NCBI GenBank assembly: GCA_902795355.1
Contig: CADBKZ010000002.1
Span: forward strand, 62,236-126,235
Origin: an uncultured Ruminococcus sp.
Lineage (GTDB): Bacteria > Bacillota > Clostridia > Oscillospirales > CAG-272
Direction of reading: 5' to 3'
Length of the DNA: 64,000 bases
This document shows, piece by piece, positions 6,080 to 29,417 of the stretch; positions within the stretch are counted from its first letter, which is position 1; each line of letters opens with the position of its first letter. The position numbers were made by a program, and so were the translations under genes. The notes below the pieces were generated by a model, which was not told the origin of the DNA, ran no database searches, and saw only the letters and a list, made by a program, of their open reading frames with translations.

Positions 6080-9001
6080 TTATTTCCCCTCGCCGATGAC
6101 CGCGAAGAGGCTCCGCAGGCGGATCTTGACCGCGCCGAGGTTGGTAATCTCGTCGATCTTGATCTGCGTGTAGAGTTTTCCGCGGCTTTCGAGGATCGCC
6201 CGCGTTTCGTCGGTCGTCACCGCGTCCACGCCGCATCCGAACGACACGAGCTGCACCAAATGGATCGGTTGGTCGGTCGTTTCGGCAACGAACCTTGCCG
6301 CCGCGTACAGGCGGGCATGGTAGGTCCATTGGTTGAGGACCGTTGTTCCGAACGGGGCGACCTTTTGCGCCACCGCATCCTCGGTCAGAACCACCGCGCC
6401 GAGGTCGCAGAGCAGGCGGTCGATGCCGTGGTTGATTTCGGGGTCGATGTGGTAGGGTCTCCCCGCCAGCACAATGGCGGGCATGCCCTTCTCCTTGGCC
6501 AGCGCAAGGTATTCCCCGCCCTTTTGCCGAACGGCTTCCATATGCCCGTCGTAGGCGGCGTAGGCCTCTTTTGCGGCGCGTTTGGCGTCGCCGTCCGAAA
6601 CCGGAATCCCCTTTTCGGCCATCAGGCGCACGAAATGCCTGTGGAAGGTCTTTCGGTCGTGCAGGCTGATGAAGCCGTTGACGAAATTCACCGTTTCGGG
6701 AATTTTGACATTGGCTCCGATTACCGACGGATAATAGGCCACCACGGGGCAATTGTAGTGGTTGACGCCATAGCCCTCGTCCACATTGTAGCTCATGGCG
6801 GGATAGAACAGAATGTCCACCCCGCGATCCAGAAGATCCTCGATATGCCCATGGACGATCTTGGCTGGGTAGCAGGCGGTATCCGACGTTATGGTGTGCT
6901 GACCCCTGACATAGAGCGCGTGGTTGGATTCGCCCGAGACGACCACGTTATAGCCGAGGCGGTCGAAGAGCGTGTGCCAGAACGGCAGCAGTTCATAAAG
7001 GTTGAGCGCCATGGGAATACCCACCGTTGGCGCGTTGGGGTACTTCTTTTCGTTCCGGCGGTACTCCGCCAGCAGGTTGTATTTGTATTCGTAAAGGTTA
7101 TACCGCTCCTTGGCCGCGGCAAGGCGCAGCGGTTTTTCGCAGCGGTTGCCCGCGATGTAACGCCGACCGCCCGAAAAGCGGTTGATCGTCAGCCGGCAGT
7201 GGTTTGCGCAGCCGTTGCAGGTGGTGGCGGTTACTTGGTGCTCGAACGAGGCAAGCCCCGCCGCGTCGATCAGCGCGCTCTTCCCCGCAGCGGGATGCGC
7301 CATGGCGTAGAGCGCGGCTCCGTAGGCCCCCATCAGCCCCGCAACCGAGGGGCGAAGCACGTCCTTGCCGATCTCCTGCTCGAACGCGCGCAGAACCGCG
7401 TTGTTCAGGAAAGTTCCCCCCTGCACCACAATGTGGTTGCCGAGGGTTTTCGGGTTGGCGCACCGGATCACCTTATACAGCGCGTTCTTGACCACGCTGA
7501 TGGAAAGCCCCGCCGAAATGTTGGCAATGCCCGCGCCGTCCTTCTGCGCCTGCTTGACCGAGCTGTTCATGAACACGGTGCAGCGCGAACCGAGGTCCAC
7601 GGGCGAATCGGCAAACAACGCCTGCTCGGCAAACTCCCGCGGCGTGTAGCCGAGAACGCCCGCAAAGGTTTGCAGGAACGAGCCGCACCCCGAGGAGCAG
7701 GCCTCGTTGAGGAAAATGCTGTCGATCGCGCCGCCGCGGATGCGGAAGCATTTGATGTCCTGCCCGCCGATGTCGATGATGAAATCCACCTCGGGGCAGA
7801 AATGCGAAGCAGCCGTGTAATGCGCAACGGTCTCCACCACGCCGCGATCCACGCCGAACGCGCTTTGAATAATGGCCTCGCCGTAGCCCGTTACCGCCGA
7901 CCCCGCAATGCGAATGTCGGGGTATTTTTCGTAAATTCCGGTCAGATATCGGCGGATGAGCGGAACGGGGTTGCCGCTGTTGGGCAGATACATGGGAGAG
8001 AACAGGTTCCCCTCGCGGTCGCAAAGAACGGCCTTGACGGTGGTGGAACCCGCGTCGATCCCGAGGAACATTTCCCCGTTCGGCGCGTCAATCTCGCGGA
8101 TCCCGCGCGAATCGGCCTCGTGGCGGGCGAGAAATGCCTCGTATTCCCCGCGATTGGCAAAGAGCGGGCGGCAGCCCGCAAACCCGTTGCGGCTCCGATA
8201 GCCGTCCACCGTTGCGGCAAGCGATTCAAGGTCGGCCTCGGCCGCCGAGGGCGACACCGCCGCCCCGAGCGCAACGAACAGCAGCGAGTGTTCGGGGCAG
8301 GTCCCCGTAATCTTCAAAGTGTCGTCAAACGCGCGGCGCAAATAGGGGAAAAAGGTCAGCGGGCCGCCGAGATACAGCACGTTCCCCGCGATCTCGCGCC
8401 CCTGCGCCAGACCCGCAACGGTCTGGTTGACCACCGCATAAAAAATGCTGGCGGCAACGTCCTTTTTCTGCGCGCCTTGGTTGAGCAGGGGCTGAATATC
8501 CGATTTGGCGAACACGCCGCAGCGCGAGGCGATGGTGTAGAGCTTTTCGCTCTCGCCCGCCAGCTCGCCGAGTTCCTCGGGCGTCAGGTTCATCAGCTCG
8601 GCCATCTGGTCGATGAACGCGCCGGTGCCGCCCGCGCAGGTGCCGTTCATGCGCACTTCGAGCGATTCGCCGAGGAAGAGGATTTTCGCGTCCTCGCCGC
8701 CCAGCTCAATCACCGTGTCGATCTCCGGCATGCGGTCCTTGACCGCCAGACGCGTGGCGTAAACTTCCTGCACGAACGGCAGGCCGAGGTCGTTGGCAAT
8801 GCCCATGCCCGCCGACCCCGAAACGGCCAGCCGCATGGGTTCGTTCGGGTATTCTTTTGCAATGGCGCGCAACAGCGCGGCCACCATGGGCGCGATTTGC
8901 GACCGGTGGCGTTCGTAACTTGAATAAAGCAAGGCTCCGCTCTCCGAGAGCACCGCGCATTTGACGGTGGTGGAGCCGATGTCGATTCCGATTCGTTTCA
9001 A
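6080..9001 (-). CDS. BadF/BadG/BcrA/BcrD-type ATPase, double-domain 'CoA-substrate-specific enzyme activase' fused to a C-terminal uncharacterised domain
   Basis: 973 aa. Two actin-fold ATPase repeats (MKRIGIDIGSTTVKCAV..., FLGIDAGSTTVKAVL...) as in 2-hydroxyacyl-CoA dehydratase activators. Confidence 0.85.
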   Translation of the reverse strand: MKRIGIDIGSTTVKCAVLSESGALLYSSYERHRSQIAPMVAALLRAIAKEYPNEPMRLAVSGSAGMGIANDLGLPFVQEVYATRLAVKDRMPEIDTVIELGGEDAKILFLGESLEVRMNGTCAGGTGAFIDQMAELMNLTPEELGELAGESEKLYTIASRCGVFAKSDIQPLLNQGAQKKDVAASIFYAVVNQTVAGLAQGREIAGNVLYLGGPLTFFPYLRRAFDDTLKITGTCPEHSLLFVALGAAVSPSAAEADLESLAATVDGYRSRNGFAGCRPLFANRGEYEAFLARHEADSRGIREIDAPNGEMFLGIDAGSTTVKAVLCDREGNLFSPMYLPNSGNPVPLIRRYLTGIYEKYPDIRIAGSAVTGYGEAIIQSAFGVDRGVVETVAHYTAASHFCPEVDFIIDIGGQDIKCFRIRGGAIDSIFLNEACSSGCGSFLQTFAGVLGYTPREFAEQALFADSPVDLGSRCTVFMNSSVKQAQKDGAGIANISAGLSISVVKNALYKVIRCANPKTLGNHIVVQGGTFLNNAVLRAFEQEIGKDVLRPSVAGLMGAYGAALYAMAHPAAGKSALIDAAGLASFEHQVTATTCNGCANHCRLTINRFSGGRRYIAGNRCEKPLRLAAAKERYNLYEYKYNLLAEYRRNEKKYPNAPTVGIPMALNLYELLPFWHTLFDRLGYNVVVSGESNHALYVRGQHTITSDTACYPAKIVHGHIEDLLDRGVDILFYPAMSYNVDEGYGVNHYNCPVVAYYPSVIGANVKIPETVNFVNGFISLHDRKTFHRHFVRLMAEKGIPVSDGDAKRAAKEAYAAYDGHMEAVRQKGGEYLALAKEKGMPAIVLAGRPYHIDPEINHGIDRLLCDLGAVVLTEDAVAQKVAPFGTTVLNQWTYHARLYAAARFVAETTDQPIHLVQLVSFGCGVDAVTTDETRAILESRGKLYTQIKIDEITNLGAVKIRLRSLFAVIGEGK

Positions 9002-19404: not shown

Positions 19405-19447
19405 GACAAGTGCCCCAACGCAAACAAATTGCGTTGGGGCACTTGTC
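19405..19447. terminator. Bidirectional terminator hairpin between convergent genes
   Basis: gacaagtgccccaacgc / gcgttggggcacttgtc, a 17-bp perfect stem. The right arm overlaps the HNH stop codon. Confidence 0.8.
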
Positions 19448-20291
19448 AGTTCAGTCCATTAGGATCATATTTTGCGCTTTTTCCGAGGTTGCAACGTTCG
19501 CAAAGAGTACGTAAATTGCTTTTTTCAGTTTTCCCGCCCTTGCTAACGGGGATAATATGATCAACATGAAGTTTTACCCCATCTTCTTGTGTTGCCCCAC
19601 AGATTACACAACGGAAATGATCGCGTTTCATAATATCATAGCGAAGAGAATCTGTCATCAAAGCACGTTCACGAAGTATGGAATTTTTTTTGCTGTTTTT
19701 TTCTTCTCGTTCCTCAATTAACGTTTGAATTTCCCGATCCGTCAGATAGCCCTCTTGAACATAATGATTTCTTCCTTGCGGGCTTGTATATGAATAGGTC
19801 ACGACAACTTCAAATTTGCACACGGGATGCAATTGATTTTCCGCAATCAAATCTTTTTCGATTTGCTGATATTTAGATTGTTTTTTCCTTTTCGGAAAAG
19901 AAATCTCGGCTGTTTCTTTCATGATTTGTTCAAGTGCAGGCAGATAGTCAGTTAAATACTGCTTTTTGTTGTCGGAAAGAATCCCTAATCTTGATTGGAA
20001 GAACCATAGGTCCTCGCCAATCTTCTCCGCAAAAAAATGAAATTCGTCGAAGTGATCAAATGCCGATTTTGATTTACAGCGAAATGAAAAATGATATGTA
20101 TCTTTTAATTCCCATGAAAACAGTTCACGTTTTCTGTCGTTGAGTTCAAATACTTTTTTGAGACGCAAGCTATTATTAAAAACGTATTTTCTTTCTTTGG
20201 AAGGAATAACAATCTTGAAAAGGATAAAGACAGCTATTCCAATAATAACCAATATAGAAAATAATAGAATTGATTTCAATGTGTCAGACAT
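19446..20291 (-). CDS. HNH endonuclease with N-terminal TM helix and an uncharacterised central domain (AT-rich gene)
   Basis: 281 aa. N-terminal helix ILLFSILVIIGIAVFILFKIVI. C-terminal HNH core RDHFRCVICG...LHVDHIIPVSKGGKTEKSNLRTLCERCN. Composition is visibly AT-rich relative to the flanks. Confidence 0.85.
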   Translation of the reverse strand: MSDTLKSILLFSILVIIGIAVFILFKIVIPSKERKYVFNNSLRLKKVFELNDRKRELFSWELKDTYHFSFRCKSKSAFDHFDEFHFFAEKIGEDLWFFQSRLGILSDNKKQYLTDYLPALEQIMKETAEISFPKRKKQSKYQQIEKDLIAENQLHPVCKFEVVVTYSYTSPQGRNHYVQEGYLTDREIQTLIEEREEKNSKKNSILRERALMTDSLRYDIMKRDHFRCVICGATQEDGVKLHVDHIIPVSKGGKTEKSNLRTLCERCNLGKSAKYDPNGLN

Positions 20292-22461: not shown

Positions 22462-23406
22462 TCAATAGAAAGTTGCCACTTCGGGCACGGGCGCGACGGC
22501 GAAATCCGACGCGGAAACATACAAAACGGGGCCTTCACCGTTGTAAAGCCGGTGTTTTTCCACCTTGATTTTCCCCGTTAAAACCGCCCAATCGCGCGTT
22601 TTGAGCGTTGTGGACTCGGGAAACACGCAAACCATGGGGTGGAACGCGATGTCGGCCTCGCAGCAGGTCATCACATACCGCCCCGCCAAGGCTGCGTTCG
22701 CGCCGAGGCTGCGATCCCGCGCGATAATCCCCTTGAAACGGACGGTTTTGCCGTTGTACTTCGCCATATCTTCCGAAAGATCGCGGTAGAACAGCGCGTA
22801 GTCGCCGTCCGCAATCTCCACCACGGGCGCGTTCAGGTCGAACGGGAGCGGGTCCTCGGTCTCGTCGTATTCCACATGTCCGTCGGGATAGTCGTAGGTG
22901 ATGGCGGCACGGCGCGAGGTGGCGCGGATTACCTTATGGATGGCGTCCTTATCGATGTTCGCGGGAGTGCGGTTGAGCACCACCATTTCGCAGTTGTTGA
23001 GCTTATCCACCATCAGTTGGCGCATGTTGGCATTGTAGGAAAGGAACGTGTTTGCGTCGGCAAACAGCATTTCCTGATAGATGCCCCAACCGCGCGGCAG
23101 GTTGCCGTAAAGCGTGGTCAGGTTCCACATGCCGTTGTATTCGATAATTACGCGGTCGAGCTTATGCTTCTTCCCCATTGCCGTCAGGTTTTCAATGGTG
23201 ACGTCCTCTTCGTTTTCAATGGTTTCGAGCCAGACGTTCTTGCCCCAGAAGCGTTCGGGATCCAGCTCCGCCTCGCCCGCCTCGCATTGGATAATCAGCG
23301 TTTTTTCGCCAGAATTGAACCGCTGATCTTCCATGGATTCCTGAATGATGCTGGTTTTGCCGCCTTCGAGAAACCCCGTGAACAGATAAACGGGAATGGT
23401 TGCCAT
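22462..23406 (-). CDS. Degenerate COG0523/CobW-like P-loop domain fused to a DUF1980/TIGR03943-like C-terminal domain
   Basis: 314 aa. MATIPVYLFTGFLEGGKTSIIQ (Walker A) but no CxCC motif. C-terminal GRYVMTCCEADIAFHPMV resembles the conserved CC-x-x-D block of DUF1980 proteins. Confidence 0.65.
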   Translation of the reverse strand: MATIPVYLFTGFLEGGKTSIIQESMEDQRFNSGEKTLIIQCEAGEAELDPERFWGKNVWLETIENEEDVTIENLTAMGKKHKLDRVIIEYNGMWNLTTLYGNLPRGWGIYQEMLFADANTFLSYNANMRQLMVDKLNNCEMVVLNRTPANIDKDAIHKVIRATSRRAAITYDYPDGHVEYDETEDPLPFDLNAPVVEIADGDYALFYRDLSEDMAKYNGKTVRFKGIIARDRSLGANAALAGRYVMTCCEADIAFHPMVCVFPESTTLKTRDWAVLTGKIKVEKHRLYNGEGPVLYVSASDFAVAPVPEVATFY

Positions 23407-23415
23407 AAATCCCCC

Positions 23416-24828
23416 TTATTTCGCTTCCACGCCGAAGAGCGCGGCAAGCGCGGATTTGTTGATGCCCGAGCCGATTACGCACAGGCGGCCGATTACGCCC
23501 GCAGAGCCGTTCCGGACGTCGGGTTCCCCGGGAACGTAGTCGAAATGGATCCACTTGCCGTCGGTCCCTTCCACAATGCCCTTGGCGCGGAGAACCGCCC
23601 CGTAGGTATGCTCCTCGGCAAGCGATTCGAGCAGGTTTGCCAGCTCGGCTTGGTCAAATTTTTTGGTGGTCTCCACGCCCCAGCTGACGAACACATCGTC
23701 CGCGTGGTGGTGATGATGGTGATGGTGTTCGTGTTCGTCTTCATCGTCGTCGTGGTGGTGGCAGGCGCAGTTCGGATCGTCACATTCATCATCGTCGTCG
23801 TGATGATGGTGATGGTGTTCGTGCTCCTCTTCATCATCGTCGTCGTGATGGTGGCAGGCGCAGTTCGGATCGTCACATTCATCATCGTCGTCGTGATGAT
23901 GGTGATGGTGTTCGTGTTCGTCTTCATCGTCGTCGTGGTGGTGGCAGGCGCAGTTCGGGTCGTCGCATTCATCATCATGATGGTGATGGTGGTGGTGTTC
24001 GTGTTCCTCTTTCTCTTCATTGTCGTCGTGATGATGGCAGGCGCAGTTCGGATCGTCGCATTCATCATCATGATGGTGATGGTGGTGGTGTTCGTGTTCC
24101 TCTTTCTCTTCATTGTCGTCGTGATGATGGCAAGCACAGTTCGGATCGTCGCATTCATCATCATCGTCGTGATGGTGGTGGTGATGTTCTTCCTCGGCGG
24201 CCTCGGCCAAGCGCGCAAGCTCTTCCTCGATGGTATCGCGGCGTTCCATTGCTTTCAAAAGCTGTTTGCCGTCCAGCTCGTCCCACGGCGTGGTGACGAT
24301 AACGGCGGTTTCGTTATGCTCTTTGAGCAGCGCGACCGCCTCGGCCACCTTCTTTTCGCTCGCGCTTTGCGTATGCGAGAGGACGATGCAGCCGGCGTTT
24401 TCGATCTGATCGTTGAAGAACTCGCCGAAGTTCTTCATATACATTTTGCATTTGTTCGCGTCCACAACGGTGGTAAAGCCGTTGAGAACCGCGCCGTTCT
24501 CGGCGGCGTTCTGCACCGCGCGGATAATATCCGAGAGTTTTCCAACGCCCGAAGGCTCAATCAGAATGCGATCGGGGGCGTATTCTTCCAACACTTTACG
24601 CAAGGCCTTGCCGAAATCGCCCACGAGCGAGCAGCAGATGCACCCGCTGTTCATTTCGTTAACGATGATGCCGGCGTCCTGCAAAAAGCCGCCGTCAATG
24701 CCGATCTGCCCGAATTCGTTCTCGATCAGCACGATCTTCTCGCCCGCGTAAGCCTCTTTCAGCAGTTTTTTGATCAGCGTAGTCTTCCCCGCGCCCAAAA
24801 AGCCCGAGAAAATGTCGATTTTTGTCAT
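23416..24828 (-). CDS. COG0523/CobW-family GTPase metallochaperone with a giant His/Asp/Cys-rich repeat insertion
   Basis: Internal start MTKIDIFSGFLGAGKTTLIKKL (Walker A), ENEFG, GCICCSL (CxCC), EPSGVG. Five ECDDPNCACHHH units lie between the GTPase and C-terminal domains. 470 aa. Confidence 0.9.
   Translation of the reverse strand: MTKIDIFSGFLGAGKTTLIKKLLKEAYAGEKIVLIENEFGQIGIDGGFLQDAGIIVNEMNSGCICCSLVGDFGKALRKVLEEYAPDRILIEPSGVGKLSDIIRAVQNAAENGAVLNGFTTVVDANKCKMYMKNFGEFFNDQIENAGCIVLSHTQSASEKKVAEAVALLKEHNETAVIVTTPWDELDGKQLLKAMERRDTIEEELARLAEAAEEEHHHHHHDDDDECDDPNCACHHHDDNEEKEEHEHHHHHHHDDECDDPNCACHHHDDNEEKEEHEHHHHHHHDDECDDPNCACHHHDDDEDEHEHHHHHHDDDDECDDPNCACHHHDDDDEEEHEHHHHHHDDDDECDDPNCACHHHDDDEDEHEHHHHHHHHADDVFVSWGVETTKKFDQAELANLLESLAEEHTYGAVLRAKGIVEGTDGKWIHFDYVPGEPDVRNGSAGVIGRLCVIGSGINKSALAALFGVEAK
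23700..24190 (-). repeat. Five in-frame tandem repeats (periods 93, 90, 93, 93 bp) encoding HEHHHHHH(H)DD(DD)ECDDPNCACHHHDD(D/N)E units
   Basis: The conserved core cagttcgg recurs at 23768, 23861, 23951, 24044 and 24137. All periods are multiples of 3. Confidence 0.95.
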
Positions 24829-24864
24829 TTGAATCATCCCTTTTCTGAAAATTTTACCAACATA

Positions 24865-24893
24865 CATTATAATACCGAACCGACGAAAAGTCA
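24865..24893 (-). promoter_or_regulatory. Promoter TTGACT-17-TATAAT (minus strand) for the CobW operon
   Basis: Plus strand shows attata (24865-24870) and agtcaa (24888-24893). Confidence 0.65.
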
Positions 24894-24961
24894 AGAGCTT
24901 CGGGCAACGTTTTTTGAAAAAACCCGAAGAGAACGGCCGCGGGAGCAAAGGAAGAGGCCGC

Positions 24962-25003
24962 GCGAGGGGGAGCGCTTTCTTGGAAGAAAGCGCTCCCCCT
25001 CGC
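24962..25003. repeat. GC-rich hairpin GCGAGGGGGAGCGCTTTCTT..AAGAAAGCGCTCCCCCTCGC downstream of obg
   Basis: Near-perfect 20-bp arms. Related GAGGGGGAG...CTCCCCCTC hairpins at 13823-13848 and 48169-48216. Confidence 0.8.
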
Positions 25004-25117
25004 GCGCTCCCCCGCTCAAAGAACGGGCGCGGGGAATGGACGATCCGTTGGCGACAGCGAAAGTTTCCGCGGGCAAGGCTTCCCGCCGCTGCCCGTTGGA
25101 AACGATTTGCTTGACGA

Positions 25118-26398
25118 TTATTTGACATAATCAAATTCGTAGCCGTAAATATCCACGGTGTCGCCGTCGCGGCAGCCCTTGGCTTCCAAGGCCTCGAAAA
25201 CGCCGCTCCGCTGCAAAACGCGTTGGAAAAAGTTCATGGATTCGTAGTCGTTCGGGTTAATCTGCCCCATCAGGTTCAACAGCCATTCGCCTTCCACATG
25301 GTAGGTGTCGTTCTCGCGGCGGATCACGGTCTCTTTCCCGCCGCCCACATACGCGTCCTCGGGGTCGTATTCGCGCTTGTAGACCTTCATGGGCGGCAGA
25401 TCGCGGAGCAGTTCCGCCGTGCGCGCCACCAGCGCGTCCATCCCCTCGCCCGTGGCCGCGGAAACATAGAACAGCTCCCAGCCGTTCCCTTTGACAAAAC
25501 GCTCGAACGCGGGAATATCCACCGTTTCGCGGTCCAGCGTGTCCACCTTGTTTGCCACGATGATCTGCGGGCGCGAGGCCAACTCCGGACTGTATCGATC
25601 CAACTCGACGTTGATCACTTCCACCTCGTCGATCGGGTCGCGCCCCTCAAAGCAGGAAATATCCACCACATGCCAGAGCAGGCGGCAGCGGTCGATATGC
25701 CGCAAAAACGCGTGGCCCAACCCCGCGCCGTCGGCCGCCCCCTCGATCAGCCCGGGGATGTCGGCGGCAACAAACCCGCTCTCGCCCCCCGTTCGCACCA
25801 CGCCAAGGTTGGGAGACAGCGTGGTGAAATGGTAGTCCGCCACCTTCGGCTTGGCCGACGAAATGCGCGCGAGAATTGACGATTTTCCAACGCTCGGATA
25901 TCCGCAAATGCCGACGTCGGCCAGCATTTTGAGTTCGAGAATCACCGTTTTTTCCTCGCCCTTGGTCCCGTTCTTGGCAAACATGGGCACCTGCCGCGTG
26001 GCGGTTGCAAACCGGCGGTTGCCCCACCCCCCGCGGCCGCCGCGGCAGGCAACATAGTCGGCGCCGTCGTTCTCGGACATATCATGGATCACTCTTCCGC
26101 TTTCGGCGTCCTTGATCAGCGTTCCCTGCGGTACGGGGATGATCAGATCCTCGCCGTTCGCGCCGTGGAACTTTGCGCCGCTGCCGTCGCCGCCGCGCTT
26201 CGCCGCAAAATGGTGCTTATAGCGGAAGGCGAGCAGCGTGTTGGTTCCGAGGTCCACGCGGAAGATTACGTTGCCGCCCCTGCCGCCGTCGCCGCCGTCC
26301 GGCCCGCCCGCGGCCACATATTTTTCCCGACGGAACGACACGGCTCCGTTGCCGCCGTCGCCCGCCCGAATTTCGATTTTTGCATGATCGACAAACAT
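25118..26398 (-). CDS. obg: GTPase Obg/CgtA
   Basis: 426 aa. MFVDHAKIEIRAGDGGNGAVSFRREKYVAAGGPDGGDGGRGGNVIF, then G-domain and C-terminal TGS-like extension. Confidence 0.97.
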   Translation of the reverse strand: MFVDHAKIEIRAGDGGNGAVSFRREKYVAAGGPDGGDGGRGGNVIFRVDLGTNTLLAFRYKHHFAAKRGGDGSGAKFHGANGEDLIIPVPQGTLIKDAESGRVIHDMSENDGADYVACRGGRGGWGNRRFATATRQVPMFAKNGTKGEEKTVILELKMLADVGICGYPSVGKSSILARISSAKPKVADYHFTTLSPNLGVVRTGGESGFVAADIPGLIEGAADGAGLGHAFLRHIDRCRLLWHVVDISCFEGRDPIDEVEVINVELDRYSPELASRPQIIVANKVDTLDRETVDIPAFERFVKGNGWELFYVSAATGEGMDALVARTAELLRDLPPMKVYKREYDPEDAYVGGGKETVIRRENDTYHVEGEWLLNLMGQINPNDYESMNFFQRVLQRSGVFEALEAKGCRDGDTVDIYGYEFDYVK

Positions 26399-28106: not shown

Positions 28107-29417
28107 TTACACCCCCAGCACCGCGCGGACAAACGCGCCGCCGTCGCTCCGGCAGGGGCGGACCGGAACGCCGAGTTTCCGCGAGAGCATGGCGGGCGTG
28201 GTGTCGTCCAAAAAAAGGTCCTCGTCGGCTTTGAGCATGGTTTCGGGGAACAGCAGTTCGTCGCCGAGGTCCTCGCCCGCAAGCTGGTCCATCAGGTCGG
28301 TTCCGGTCAAAAGCCCCGAAACCGTGACCGTTTCCCCGAAAAACCGATTGACGATGCGATAGACCCTGACCGTTAATCCCGGAACGCGCTCGGCAAGCCG
28401 CCGCGCCATGGAAGCGATTTGCTCGTAGGCCGCGACCCCCGTTGCGAGAGAGACGGCGCGCGGCGCGCGGAAATTTGCCAACGCCTCGCCGAGGTCTCCC
28501 ATTTCAAAATCGAACTCGGCGGCAAGGGACGTCAGCATTCCCACGCCGTTTTCAATTTGCGAAAAATCCTCGTAGTAGCTTTCGTCGGGGAGCGGAAGCT
28601 CGGCTTTAAGGTAAAGCTCGTCCGCGCAATAGAACAGACGCGTGCCGTATTTTTCAAGACATTCCGCGCCGAACGCGTTGACCTGCGCGATTACCGCCGC
28701 GGCTTCCTCTTTGTTGAAGAGTTCGAGCGGGTACAGCCCCTCGCGGAATTTCGTGATTCCCACGGGGACGATCGCGCAGGAGCGCAGGGCGGGATAGTAG
28801 GCGGCAAGGTCGCGCATGGAACGATCCAGCTCGGCTCCGTCGTTCAGCCCCTTGCAAAGCACAATCTGCGTGCAGAGGGTCAATCCCCCGTCCGCGAATC
28901 GCCGCAGGTAGGAAAGCACTTCCCCCGCGCGGCGATTTCCCATCATGCGGACGCGCAGTTCGGGATTGGTGGTGTGTACCGAAACGTTGATGGGCGAGAT
29001 GTGCATTTTGATCAGCCGTTCCACGTCGCGGTCGCGCAGGTTGGTTAAGGTTACGTAGTTTCCGTGCAGAAAAGAAAGGCGGTCGTCGTCATCCTTGAAA
29101 TAGAGCGTTTTCCGCATGCCTTTGGGAAGTTGATCGACAAAGCAGAACACGCATTTGTTCGCGCAACTGTGCTTGCGATCCATCAGCGGGGTGGCAAATT
29201 CAAGGCCGATGTCGTCGTATTCGCCCTTGCGGAAACGCACCTCATAGGGGGTCTCCGCGCGCGTGAGCCGCAGCGAAACTTCCGTATCGGTCAGATAAAA
29301 ACGGTAGTCCAGCACATCGCGGATTTCGTTGCCGTTGACCGAAACCAGCACGTCGCCCGCAACGATTCCCTCGGCTTCCGCCGCGCTGCCCTCGCGAACC
29401 GAAACGATCCGAACCAT
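28107..29417 (-). CDS. PDZ plus radical-SAM-like DUF512 protein
   Basis: 436 aa. N-terminal PDZ (GIVAGDVLVSVNGNEI), CANKCVFCFVDQ cluster motif. In the classic position upstream of der. Confidence 0.85.
   Translation of the reverse strand: MVRIVSVREGSAAEAEGIVAGDVLVSVNGNEIRDVLDYRFYLTDTEVSLRLTRAETPYEVRFRKGEYDDIGLEFATPLMDRKHSCANKCVFCFVDQLPKGMRKTLYFKDDDDRLSFLHGNYVTLTNLRDRDVERLIKMHISPINVSVHTTNPELRVRMMGNRRAGEVLSYLRRFADGGLTLCTQIVLCKGLNDGAELDRSMRDLAAYYPALRSCAIVPVGITKFREGLYPLELFNKEEAAAVIAQVNAFGAECLEKYGTRLFYCADELYLKAELPLPDESYYEDFSQIENGVGMLTSLAAEFDFEMGDLGEALANFRAPRAVSLATGVAAYEQIASMARRLAERVPGLTVRVYRIVNRFFGETVTVSGLLTGTDLMDQLAGEDLGDELLFPETMLKADEDLFLDDTTPAMLSRKLGVPVRPCRSDGGAFVRAVLGV

Follow-up and report, generated by a model that had tools for sequence, protein, structure and literature searches.

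A tandemly repeated His/Cys-rich linker in a COG0523-type P-loop NTPase of Clostridia

What is an array of five histidine-, aspartate- and cysteine-rich repeats doing in the middle of a metallochaperone-like protein, and is it peculiar to one genome? This question is raised by a gene in a 64,000-nt stretch of DNA from an uncultured Ruminococcus sp. (GenBank assembly GCA_902795355.1, contig CADBKZ010000002.1, positions 62,236 to 126,235 of the forward strand), which we analysed as a whole and refer to as the window. The gene lies at 23416..24828 on the minus strand and encodes a COG0523-type G3E P-loop NTPase of 470 aa, as assigned from its open reading frame (ORF) and start codon, Pfam and homologues. 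Of all metallochaperones, those of COG0523 are the least understood, with few clients known. We examined ~390 orthologues from Oscillospirales and Lachnospirales; of those with a complete linker, all except one have a His-rich linker bearing Cys motifs. Their sequences indicate that the window gene is the long extreme of a widespread orthologue group, and that the ancestral state of this large group of Clostridia proteins, shared across the family, is a linker of His/Cys tandem repeats.

The array occupies a linker rich in His, Asp, Glu and Cys (residues 212-375; 23704..24195, minus strand), delimited by composition and an AlphaFold2 (AF2) model. In 171 aa of linker, His accounts for 60 residues, Asp for 42, Glu for 29 and Cys for 15. 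The predicted local distance difference test score (pLDDT) is below 50 at residues 214-379, and the model shows the inter-domain linker as intrinsically disordered. It is an extended His-rich disordered segment of the type found in HypB nickelin and CobW2. Tandem Repeats Finder reported a repeat at 23710-24189 with a period of 93, 5.2 copies, 89% matches and a score of 634, as well as a higher-order period of 183 bp. Cores of the sequence CAGTTCGG lie at 23768, 23861, 23951, 24044 and 24137 and are thus spaced 93, 90, 93 and 93 bp apart; just one more copy exists within the 64 kb, at 28956. The tandem repeat is far beyond chance. In the protein, five in-frame units of 93/93/90/93/93 bp, each encoding 30-31 residues, begin at E225, E256, E287, E317 and E348, between the G-domain and CobW_C. 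All five share an identical 13-aa core, ECDDPNCACHHHD, joined by spacers of the DNEEKEEHEHHHHHHHDD or DDEDEHEHHHHHH(DDDD) type, and every unit has 10-11 His and 3 Cys. The module thus consists of a Cys-x4-Cys-x-Cys-His3 core and a run of six to eight His, set in Asp and Glu. An earlier note made from the letters alone had described five in-frame His/Asp/Cys repeats with these same periods and about 10 His and 3 Cys per unit, lying between the GTPase and C-terminal domains of a COG0523-type protein. The core positions and Tandem Repeats Finder match the repeats and periods exactly, the residue counts agree, and Pfam, our orthologue alignment (A1) and the AF2 model confirm the class and the placement.

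The five units fall into two types. Units 1 (ECDDPNCACHHHDDNEEKEEHEHHHHHHHDD, 93 bp, 24064..24156) and 2 (93 bp, 23971..24063) are of type A, with a DNEEKEE... spacer, and are 97.8% identical. Type B comprises unit 3 (ECDDPNCACHHHDDDEDEHEHHHHHHDDDD, 90 bp, 23881..23970), the variant B' unit 4 (93 bp, 23788..23880, spacer 23824-23848) and unit 5 (23695..23787), which leads into a family-wide HHHHHHHH-ADDVF junction; all units are on the minus strand. Identity is 87-91% among units 3, 4 and 5, and 77-84% between types A and B. With unit lengths that are multiples of 3 and a DNA identity of 77-98%, the array has the form of a coding variable-number tandem repeat (VNTR). Exact internal repeats reach 80 bp at most, and each unit carries its own signature at synonymous sites. 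Six sites vary among the five 39-nt cores, all of them third codon positions, which amounts to 30 synonymous versus 0 non-synonymous pairwise differences. The core peptide is thus under purifying selection, and the five copies can be told apart.

Two further features of the DNA strands were seen at the array. The GAT/GAC (Asp) and CAT/CAC (His) runs are mutually complementary and gave several terminator-like hairpin calls on the plus strand (23879-24186). The idea of a hairpin was dropped because the folding energy of the array is no better than that of dinucleotide shuffles (z = 0.12). A plus-strand ORF of 828 aa (22639-25125), which reads the array as a hydrophobic repeat rich in V, M, I and F, was rejected as an antisense artefact of GC-rich codon usage over this gene and its operon partner, described below.

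To see how the array compares with those of relatives, we turned to the orthologues. The exact sequence of the window protein was absent from the record look-up, where the closest entry (P0001) is shorter by 1 aa. A word-seeded search returned 8000 homologues, of which the best 120 were analysed for units. These 120 are 356-469 aa long, come from Ruminococcaceae, Oscillospiraceae and Clostridia metagenome-assembled genomes (MAGs), and share one architecture. Two of them have a single Cx4CxC unit, 30 have two, 49 have three, 35 have four, three have five and one has six. Scanning one genome per GTDB species yielded 80 loci in Oscillospirales, Lachnospiraceae and others, among them those of the cultured Blautia difficilis M29 and Hydrogeniiclostridium mannosilyticum, and that of a Pygmaiobacter MAG assembled as one contig of 2.56 Mb. 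All complete orthologues have a His-rich linker, bounded by ...RRDTIEEEL... and ...HHHH-ADEVF. Across 147 complete loci the linker measures 36-169 aa (median 87) and is ~41% His; it is lost in none of them, and at least two Cys are present in 146. The Cys motifs mostly stand in tandem repeats whose unit is specific to the lineage: ECDDPxCxCHHH, EECxCGCHDHEHHHH, ECCCGHDHHEHHHH, HECTCGHDHHDHD, HCCHHHHDEEE, ECCCGHDH, HECTCGHDH and others. The motif E-C-[DE]-D-P-x-C-x-C-H-H is conserved throughout the clade.

The longest linker is that of the window and the near-identical locus L001, followed by linkers of 147, 141 and 139 aa. Some shorter linkers have a higher His count (70 His in P0034). An exhaustive hidden Markov model search of 1.84 billion cluster representatives gave 1305 matches at E ≤1e-30, and no longer His/Cys array was found among the best 150. 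Longer proteins among the 50%-identity representatives were rejected as fusions, frameshifts or chimeras, with the exception of P0249. This 544-aa orthologue has two Pfam HMA domains (CPHC motif, E 4e-15) at the same linker position, followed by CxC/His motifs. Inserted exactly there, the HMA domains are independent evidence that metal binding in this family resides in the linker. The earlier note had read the five-fold expanded, Cys-containing array as a metal storage or buffering function grafted onto the chaperone. With a repeat linker that is family-wide, however, the window array is no special addition to a chaperone of the usual kind. Comparing linker lengths does place the window at the top of the range, and it equally reveals that a long repeat linker is not unique to it.

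The arrays change quickly while their core peptide does not. Mean identity among units is 85% within proteins versus 70% between proteins, and for 158 of 366 units the nearest neighbour is in the same protein, versus 0.6% expected by chance. The middle residue of the CxC motif varies from protein to protein (A, S, C, E or H) and is shared among the units of one protein. The arrays have likely been homogenised within lineages by concerted evolution, with selection holding the core peptide constant. Close relatives with ~93% identical flanks have one, two or three units. At the species level, we grouped independent gut metagenome contigs from short-read assemblies whose flanks were at least 97% identical in nucleotide sequence. 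In the first such cluster the linker-length alleles were 46/47/48, 59, 76/78 and 106/111 aa. Other clusters ranged from 60 to 86-91, from 84-87 to 102 and from 88 to 103 aa, or held alleles of 51, 59 and 75 aa. The steps between alleles within a cluster are whole units or half-units. Three separate ENA assemblies share the 103-aa allele, and four share one 86-aa allele; since alleles recur across separate assemblies, we consider them real and heritable. Copy number therefore varies within species in these clusters, as in a VNTR, and is ambiguous for the window's own strain. Copy-number variability of this class of locus is thus supported, and the suspicion in the earlier note that the locus is prone to it was well founded: orthologues have 1-6 units, and alleles differ at flanks of at least 97% identity.

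The domains on either side of the linker are those of a COG0523 protein. The raw ORF spans 23416-25134. Its true start was placed at the ATG at 24828 because every homologue starts with MTKIDIF and because a ribosome-binding site and a promoter precede this codon. The stop codon is at 23416-23418 (minus strand, as for all motifs below). The G-domain (residues 1-205; 24214..24828) was delimited by invariant columns in alignment A1 and by the AF2 model, and Pfam cobW matched residues 6-175 (E 8e-37). It contains the Walker A motif GFLGAGKT (residues 9-16; 24781-24804), the Walker B stretch ILIEPSGVG (residues 88-96) that belongs to the G3E P-loop domain of COG0523, and the CxCC motif GCICCS (residues 62-67; 24628-24645). 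The CxCC motif is invariant in alignment A1 and present in all of the 120 best homologues. The C-terminal part is a CobW_C domain (residues 380-470; 23419..23691; Pfam CobW_C at residues 380-465 with 31.1 bits against a cutoff of 22). It includes the RxKG motif of COG0523 as LRAKG (residues 413-417; 23578-23589), which is invariant in the COG0523 orthologues of A1 (R414, A415, K416 and G417). According to a 2026 preprint, RxKG is the sole superfamily-invariant element of the C-domain (PMC13001444). In the AF2 model both domains are folded, with a pLDDT of 70-90 over most of the G-domain. By these motifs and profiles, the gene product belongs to the COG0523 class of G3E P-loop metallochaperone-like NTPases.

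The G4 motif departs from this class. Aligned to YjiA, the window protein has SHTQ (residues 151-154; 24367-24378) opposite the TKTD of YjiA, in place of the [NT]KxD of COG0523. The motif reads S[HR]T[QDGE] across the whole orthologue group, which makes the nucleotide preference uncertain. A loss of guanine specificity is conceivable, in which case ATP may be used or nucleotide choice may be promiscuous.

What might the linker do? We favour, with somewhat better than even confidence, a role as a metal reservoir or antenna that feeds the CxCC site, with the number of modules setting its capacity. The linker would act as a multi-site binder of a divalent transition metal with lower affinity and high capacity. 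This on-board reservoir or capture antenna would buffer the metal and pass it to the high-affinity CxCC site of the G-domain, after which nucleotide-driven delivery to a client would follow, probably jointly with the partner protein. The 75 strong ligands (60 His and 15 Cys) could hold ~10-18 ions, ~18 being the upper bound at four ligands per ion. The sole measured analogue for such a capacity is CobW2, with ~7 Zn (PMC11340326). As near-identical units of 90-93 bp recombine unequally or slip during replication, modules would be gained and lost rapidly, and capacity with them. Zn(II) is most likely the metal bound, since characterised COG0523 proteins with a CxCC site mostly handle Zn and Cys3His sites are typically Zn sites. 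Ni or Co is less likely, but would fit the lack of detected Zur signals and the Ni-like His/Cys chemistry. Storage or buffering is a chemically reasonable idea with published precedents in CobW2 and HypB.

Several observations weigh against this reservoir role. The genomic context does not constrain the identity of the metal: no metal transporter or client gene lies near the operon in the window or in the 80 species-level loci. An Rfam scan at the gathering threshold gave no match in the 64-kb window (58% G+C), and thus no tRNA, rRNA or riboswitch. Searching for the Zur box TCGTAATNATTACGA with up to three mismatches gave five weak matches, none near the gene, although this consensus is of the B. 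subtilis type and may not be that of the host. The strong promoter looks constitutive, unlike those of Zur-repressed COG0523 genes. SHTQ at G4 makes GTP specificity uncertain and, with it, the canonical GTP-driven cycle. Finally, the exact copy number in the window rests on short-read assemblies that conflict inside the array, which leaves it ambiguous.

Other readings of the array have to be set against the same evidence. It is possible, though doubtful, that the linker stores or delivers Ni or Co specifically, as in HypB, Hpn/Hpn-2, the SlyD tail, UreE and CooJ, and serves a Ni or Co enzyme. His runs mixed with Cys-x-Cys are typical of Ni-binding proteins, and PMC2770081 cites a case in which a His stretch stores Ni. 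The lack of a B. subtilis-type Zur box near the gene and the constitutive-looking promoter point the same way, as do HypB and UreG, which are structural neighbours of both operon proteins. However, no hydrogenase, urease, carbon monoxide dehydrogenase, nik/cbi or B12 genes were linked to the operon in the 80 species-level loci, and the single hydrogenase neighbour seen is of the [FeFe] type. The CxCC site of the window protein moreover points to COG0523, a class in which Zn is the usual metal of the characterised members, and the protein scores far below the cutoffs of the HypB (19 versus 121 bits) and CobW (84.8 versus 332) models. We think it quite unlikely that the linker is instead a regulatory tether, in which metal compacts the acidic chain, controls docking of the C-terminal domain with its RxKG arginine finger and so gates hydrolysis, with repeat number tuning the set-point. 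Such gating needs just a short conserved element (PETEEY in ZigA), leaving 60 His, 15 Cys and their modular multiplication unexplained, and linker lengths of 36-169 aa, differing both across and within species, are hard to square with a precisely tuned tether. On the other hand, neither RxKG nor CxCC varies, the model shows a disordered linker, and the linker of ZigA and MigC is not passive, gating Zn-dependent GTPase activity over CxCC (PMC13001444). A tether is compatible with storage rather than exclusive of it. Very unlikely, in our view, is a largely neutral expansion of low-complexity sequence by slippage, with one unit or the terminal His run alone being functional. Close relatives do differ freely in copy number, with anything from 1 to 6 units, an allele may have a single unit (P0048, 55-aa linker), and the D/E/H spacers drift. 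Yet the cores show 0 non-synonymous among 30 pairwise differences, and separate lineages have independently multiplied different Cys/His units. The His-rich linker is kept in 147 of 147 complete loci, with at least two Cys in 146, and most proteins have two to four units rather than one.

A different doubt concerns the count of five and not the array itself, namely that the true number or order of units differs and the count is an artefact of assembly. The window can be compared with two further assemblies of essentially one strain, L001 (a scaffold, ENA ERZ28613745) and L002 (a MEGAHIT-style k141 contig, ERZ27280503), which show zero differences over 17.4 kb beyond the array. L001 departs from the window solely at 23824-23848, where three substitutions and a 3-bp indel turn the unit-4 spacer into the unit-3/5 type, a change that resembles gene conversion. 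L002 has only two units, having lost 276 bp in unit register (93 + 183 bp; 23782-24057) plus one base. Three array structures, AABB'B in the window, AABBB in L001 and the two-unit form in L002, in otherwise identical assemblies mean either very fast change or assembly ambiguity. The deletions in L002 lie in unit register at the longest identical stretches, the pattern expected from assembler collapse. Among the loci L001-L082, 8 of 82 (L007, L019, L023, L024, L048, L069, L078 and L081) are on short-read MAG contigs that end before the COG0523 ORF does, in or near the array, and the array of L042 is masked with N. Since the array breaks or collapses short-read assemblies, gene lengths in MAG catalogues are unreliable here. 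We nevertheless regard a miscount as unlikely. Two of the three assemblies give five units in the same order, and an array of five units can be assembled from 150-nt reads because its longest exact repeat, at 80 bp, is below the usual read length and the units have specific combinations of synonymous sites. Cultured isolates, too, have arrays of several units (Blautia difficilis M29, L018), and two CTCGC motifs are present in the linker of the 2.56-Mb single-contig MAG (L062).

The reservoir reading can be extended, although we hold the extension as a whole to be improbable. The repeat array would then be a contingency locus that tunes metal capacity, with unequal recombination in gut and rumen Clostridia populations yielding alleles of one to seven or more modules that are sorted by local metal availability, for instance under host zinc sequestration. 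Compacted on metal loading, the linker would also serve as a rheostat gating the docking of the C-terminal domain with its RxKG, and the protein would form, with its G3E-OB-fold partner, a two-component metal-allocation system widespread in Oscillospirales and Lachnospirales.

This partner is encoded directly 3' of the COG0523 gene (22462..23406, minus strand). Its ATG (23406) lies 9 nt past the COG0523 stop, with GGGGGA in between. By Pfam, NCBIfam, AF2 and Foldseek it is a protein of 314 aa combining a divergent G3E P-loop domain with an oligonucleotide/oligosaccharide-binding (OB) fold of the DUF1980_C family. The profiles gave a weak cobW match (residues 5-158) and a match to DUF1980_C or the C-terminal half of TIGR03943 (residues 191-300), and the AF2 model has a pLDDT of 77.6. 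In Foldseek the N-terminal part resembles G3E P-loop domains (YjiA, HypB and UreG; E 1e-6 to 1e-5), without a CxCC motif. Its Walker A motif is GFLEGGKT, C41-E42 is invariant, and NRTP within a VLNRTP stretch is the likely equivalent of G4, as read from the sequence and not aligned to YjiA. The OB fold resembles the CST small subunit, the anticodon-binding domain of aspartyl- and asparaginyl-tRNA synthetases (Asp/AsnRS) and the MCM N-domain, and bears an invariant MTCC..D loop that is poorly modelled. DUF1980/TIGR03943 proteins are elsewhere annotated as 'putative permease subunit'. The partner matches positions 96-211 of the 221 in the TIGR03943 profile, and a soluble NTPase domain stands in place of the part N-terminal to this match. 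More than 7000 homologues of the partner share a fixed length (311-316 aa), and it directly follows the COG0523 gene in 71 of the 74 complete loci among L001-L082. Their arrangement indicates that the two genes form a conserved operon.

The predicted promoter of this two-gene operon is of the sigma-70 type, TTGACT-17-TATAAT (24866..24894, minus strand), and matches 11 of 12 consensus positions. A ribosome-binding site, AAGGGA (24837..24843, minus strand), was read from the sequence ~8 nt 5' of the ATG at 24828. The near-consensus promoter is kept in relatives, and the CTTGACTTTTC...TATAAT layout also precedes orthologues in further species. Comparing 79 orthologous upstream regions by k-mers and by eye revealed no shared operator-like palindrome and only the promoter elements TTGACTTTT and TATAAT. 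An upstream riboswitch of the NiCo, cobalamin or czcD type was rejected on the empty Rfam scan of the whole 64 kb. No Fur-family regulator is encoded in the window, and Fur-family genes adjoin the operon in 3 of ~165 loci (L165, L053 and L037). In L165, the Fur-family gene lies upstream (6270-6632), and a tRNA-like sequence, judged by eye (~6838-6915), stands between the promoter and the COG0523 gene; because it intervenes, the apparent divergent Fur arrangement there is weak evidence.

Clustering of all flanking ORFs in the 80 species-level loci revealed no recurrent neighbour besides the partner, and no zinc genes lie near the operon in these loci or in the window. The neighbours in the window are der, obg and genes for a GDSL hydrolase, an HD protein and an HNH protein, as well as sbcCD-like genes. 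The HNH endonuclease protein (281 aa; 19446-20291, minus strand) is found at the same place in L001 and L002, and its HNH region alone gives weak, sub-threshold NCBIfam matches to Cas9d and to IscB (45.9 bits, cutoff 175). In a single case, L163 (1-6870), the operon directly follows an [FeFe]-hydrogenase cluster of the HydABC, electron-bifurcating type.

This very large orthologue group is confined to Clostridia, the dominant bacteria of gut and rumen communities. Its natural allelic series of one to at least five modules provides material for studying storage and buffering, the scaling of capacity, and linker length in relation to the NTPase cycle. The partner, with its G3E-like domain, DUF1980_C OB fold and CC loop, and the non-canonical G4 motif together suggest an unstudied two-protein system.

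How does the window protein relate to known systems? Orthology to YciC/ZagA, ZigA, YeiR/YjiA or CobW was rejected, as the NCBIfam scores of 73-85 bits fall well below the equivalog cutoffs of 332-600 (CobW 84.8 versus 332, the YjiA-type PRK11537 82.9 versus 361 and ZigA 73.3 versus 600); the kinship to YciC/ZagA, ZigA and YeiR drawn in the earlier note thus does not extend to orthology. It is well known that G3E and COG0523 proteins can carry His-rich stretches, and storage has been proposed for HypB and CobW2. In the papers searched we did not find described what the sequences here indicate: a Cys-bearing, modular tandem-repeat linker, its concerted evolution and within-species length polymorphism, a Clostridia-wide operon with a G3E-OB-fold (DUF1980_C) partner, or the altered G4. 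Nothing informative was found in the literature on DUF1980, TIGR03943, YcgQ or Clostridia COG0523 proteins, nor any paper on the operon partner.

The Hpn and Hpn-2 proteins of Helicobacter pylori are small and His-rich, with short Cys motifs and repeated pentapeptides, and they buffer or store nickel. Their His runs and Cys pairs offer analogous chemistry. Unlike the window linker, they are free-standing peptides and not linkers of an NTPase, and they are unrelated in sequence and taxonomy. Among solved structures, the top match and the sole COG0523 protein found was YjiA of E. coli (PDB 1NIJ, 4IXM; E 1.4e-17, residues 4-168). It has Walker A, ENEFG, CxCC and the two-domain plan in common with the window protein, but its linker is short and lacks a His/Cys array, and its TKTD takes the position of SHTQ in the window protein. 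The linker of ZigA and MigC folds over CxCC and gates Zn-dependent GTPase activity, while the C-terminal domain provides RxK in cis as a 'self-GAP' (PMC13001444).

His stretches as such are common, being found in ~40% of 887 COG0523 proteins with up to 29 His (PMC2770081). Cyanobacterial COG0523 proteins such as Ava_3717 have HHX/HXH inserts of ~70 residues at most, considered a metallochaperone hallmark (PMC3323870). These His-rich insertions likewise lie between the domains (PMC3323870; PMC2770081). They are shorter, however, and described as His stretches rather than as Cys-bearing tandem repeats with copy variation within species. The His stretch of Bradyrhizobium japonicum HypB ('nickelin') binds 18 Ni per dimer, as cited in PMC2770081. 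HypB too is a G3E P-loop NTPase in which a metal-storing poly-His stretch stands beside nucleotide-dependent delivery. It belongs to another G3E subfamily, and its His stretch is N-terminal, lacks Cys modules and is not a 30-aa tandem repeat. CobW2 of Cupriavidus metallidurans is a COG0523 protein with an internal His-rich region, a random coil as predicted by AlphaFold, that binds up to ~7 Zn and for which a role in storing or buffering zinc was suggested (PMC11340326). CobW2 is proteobacterial and Zur-regulated, and no tandem repeat has been reported in it, nor does it have Cys-x4-Cys-x-Cys modules. The window protein, by comparison, has no detected Zur box and a non-canonical G4, is encoded beside an operon partner, and carries ~75 His and Cys ligands in five modules.

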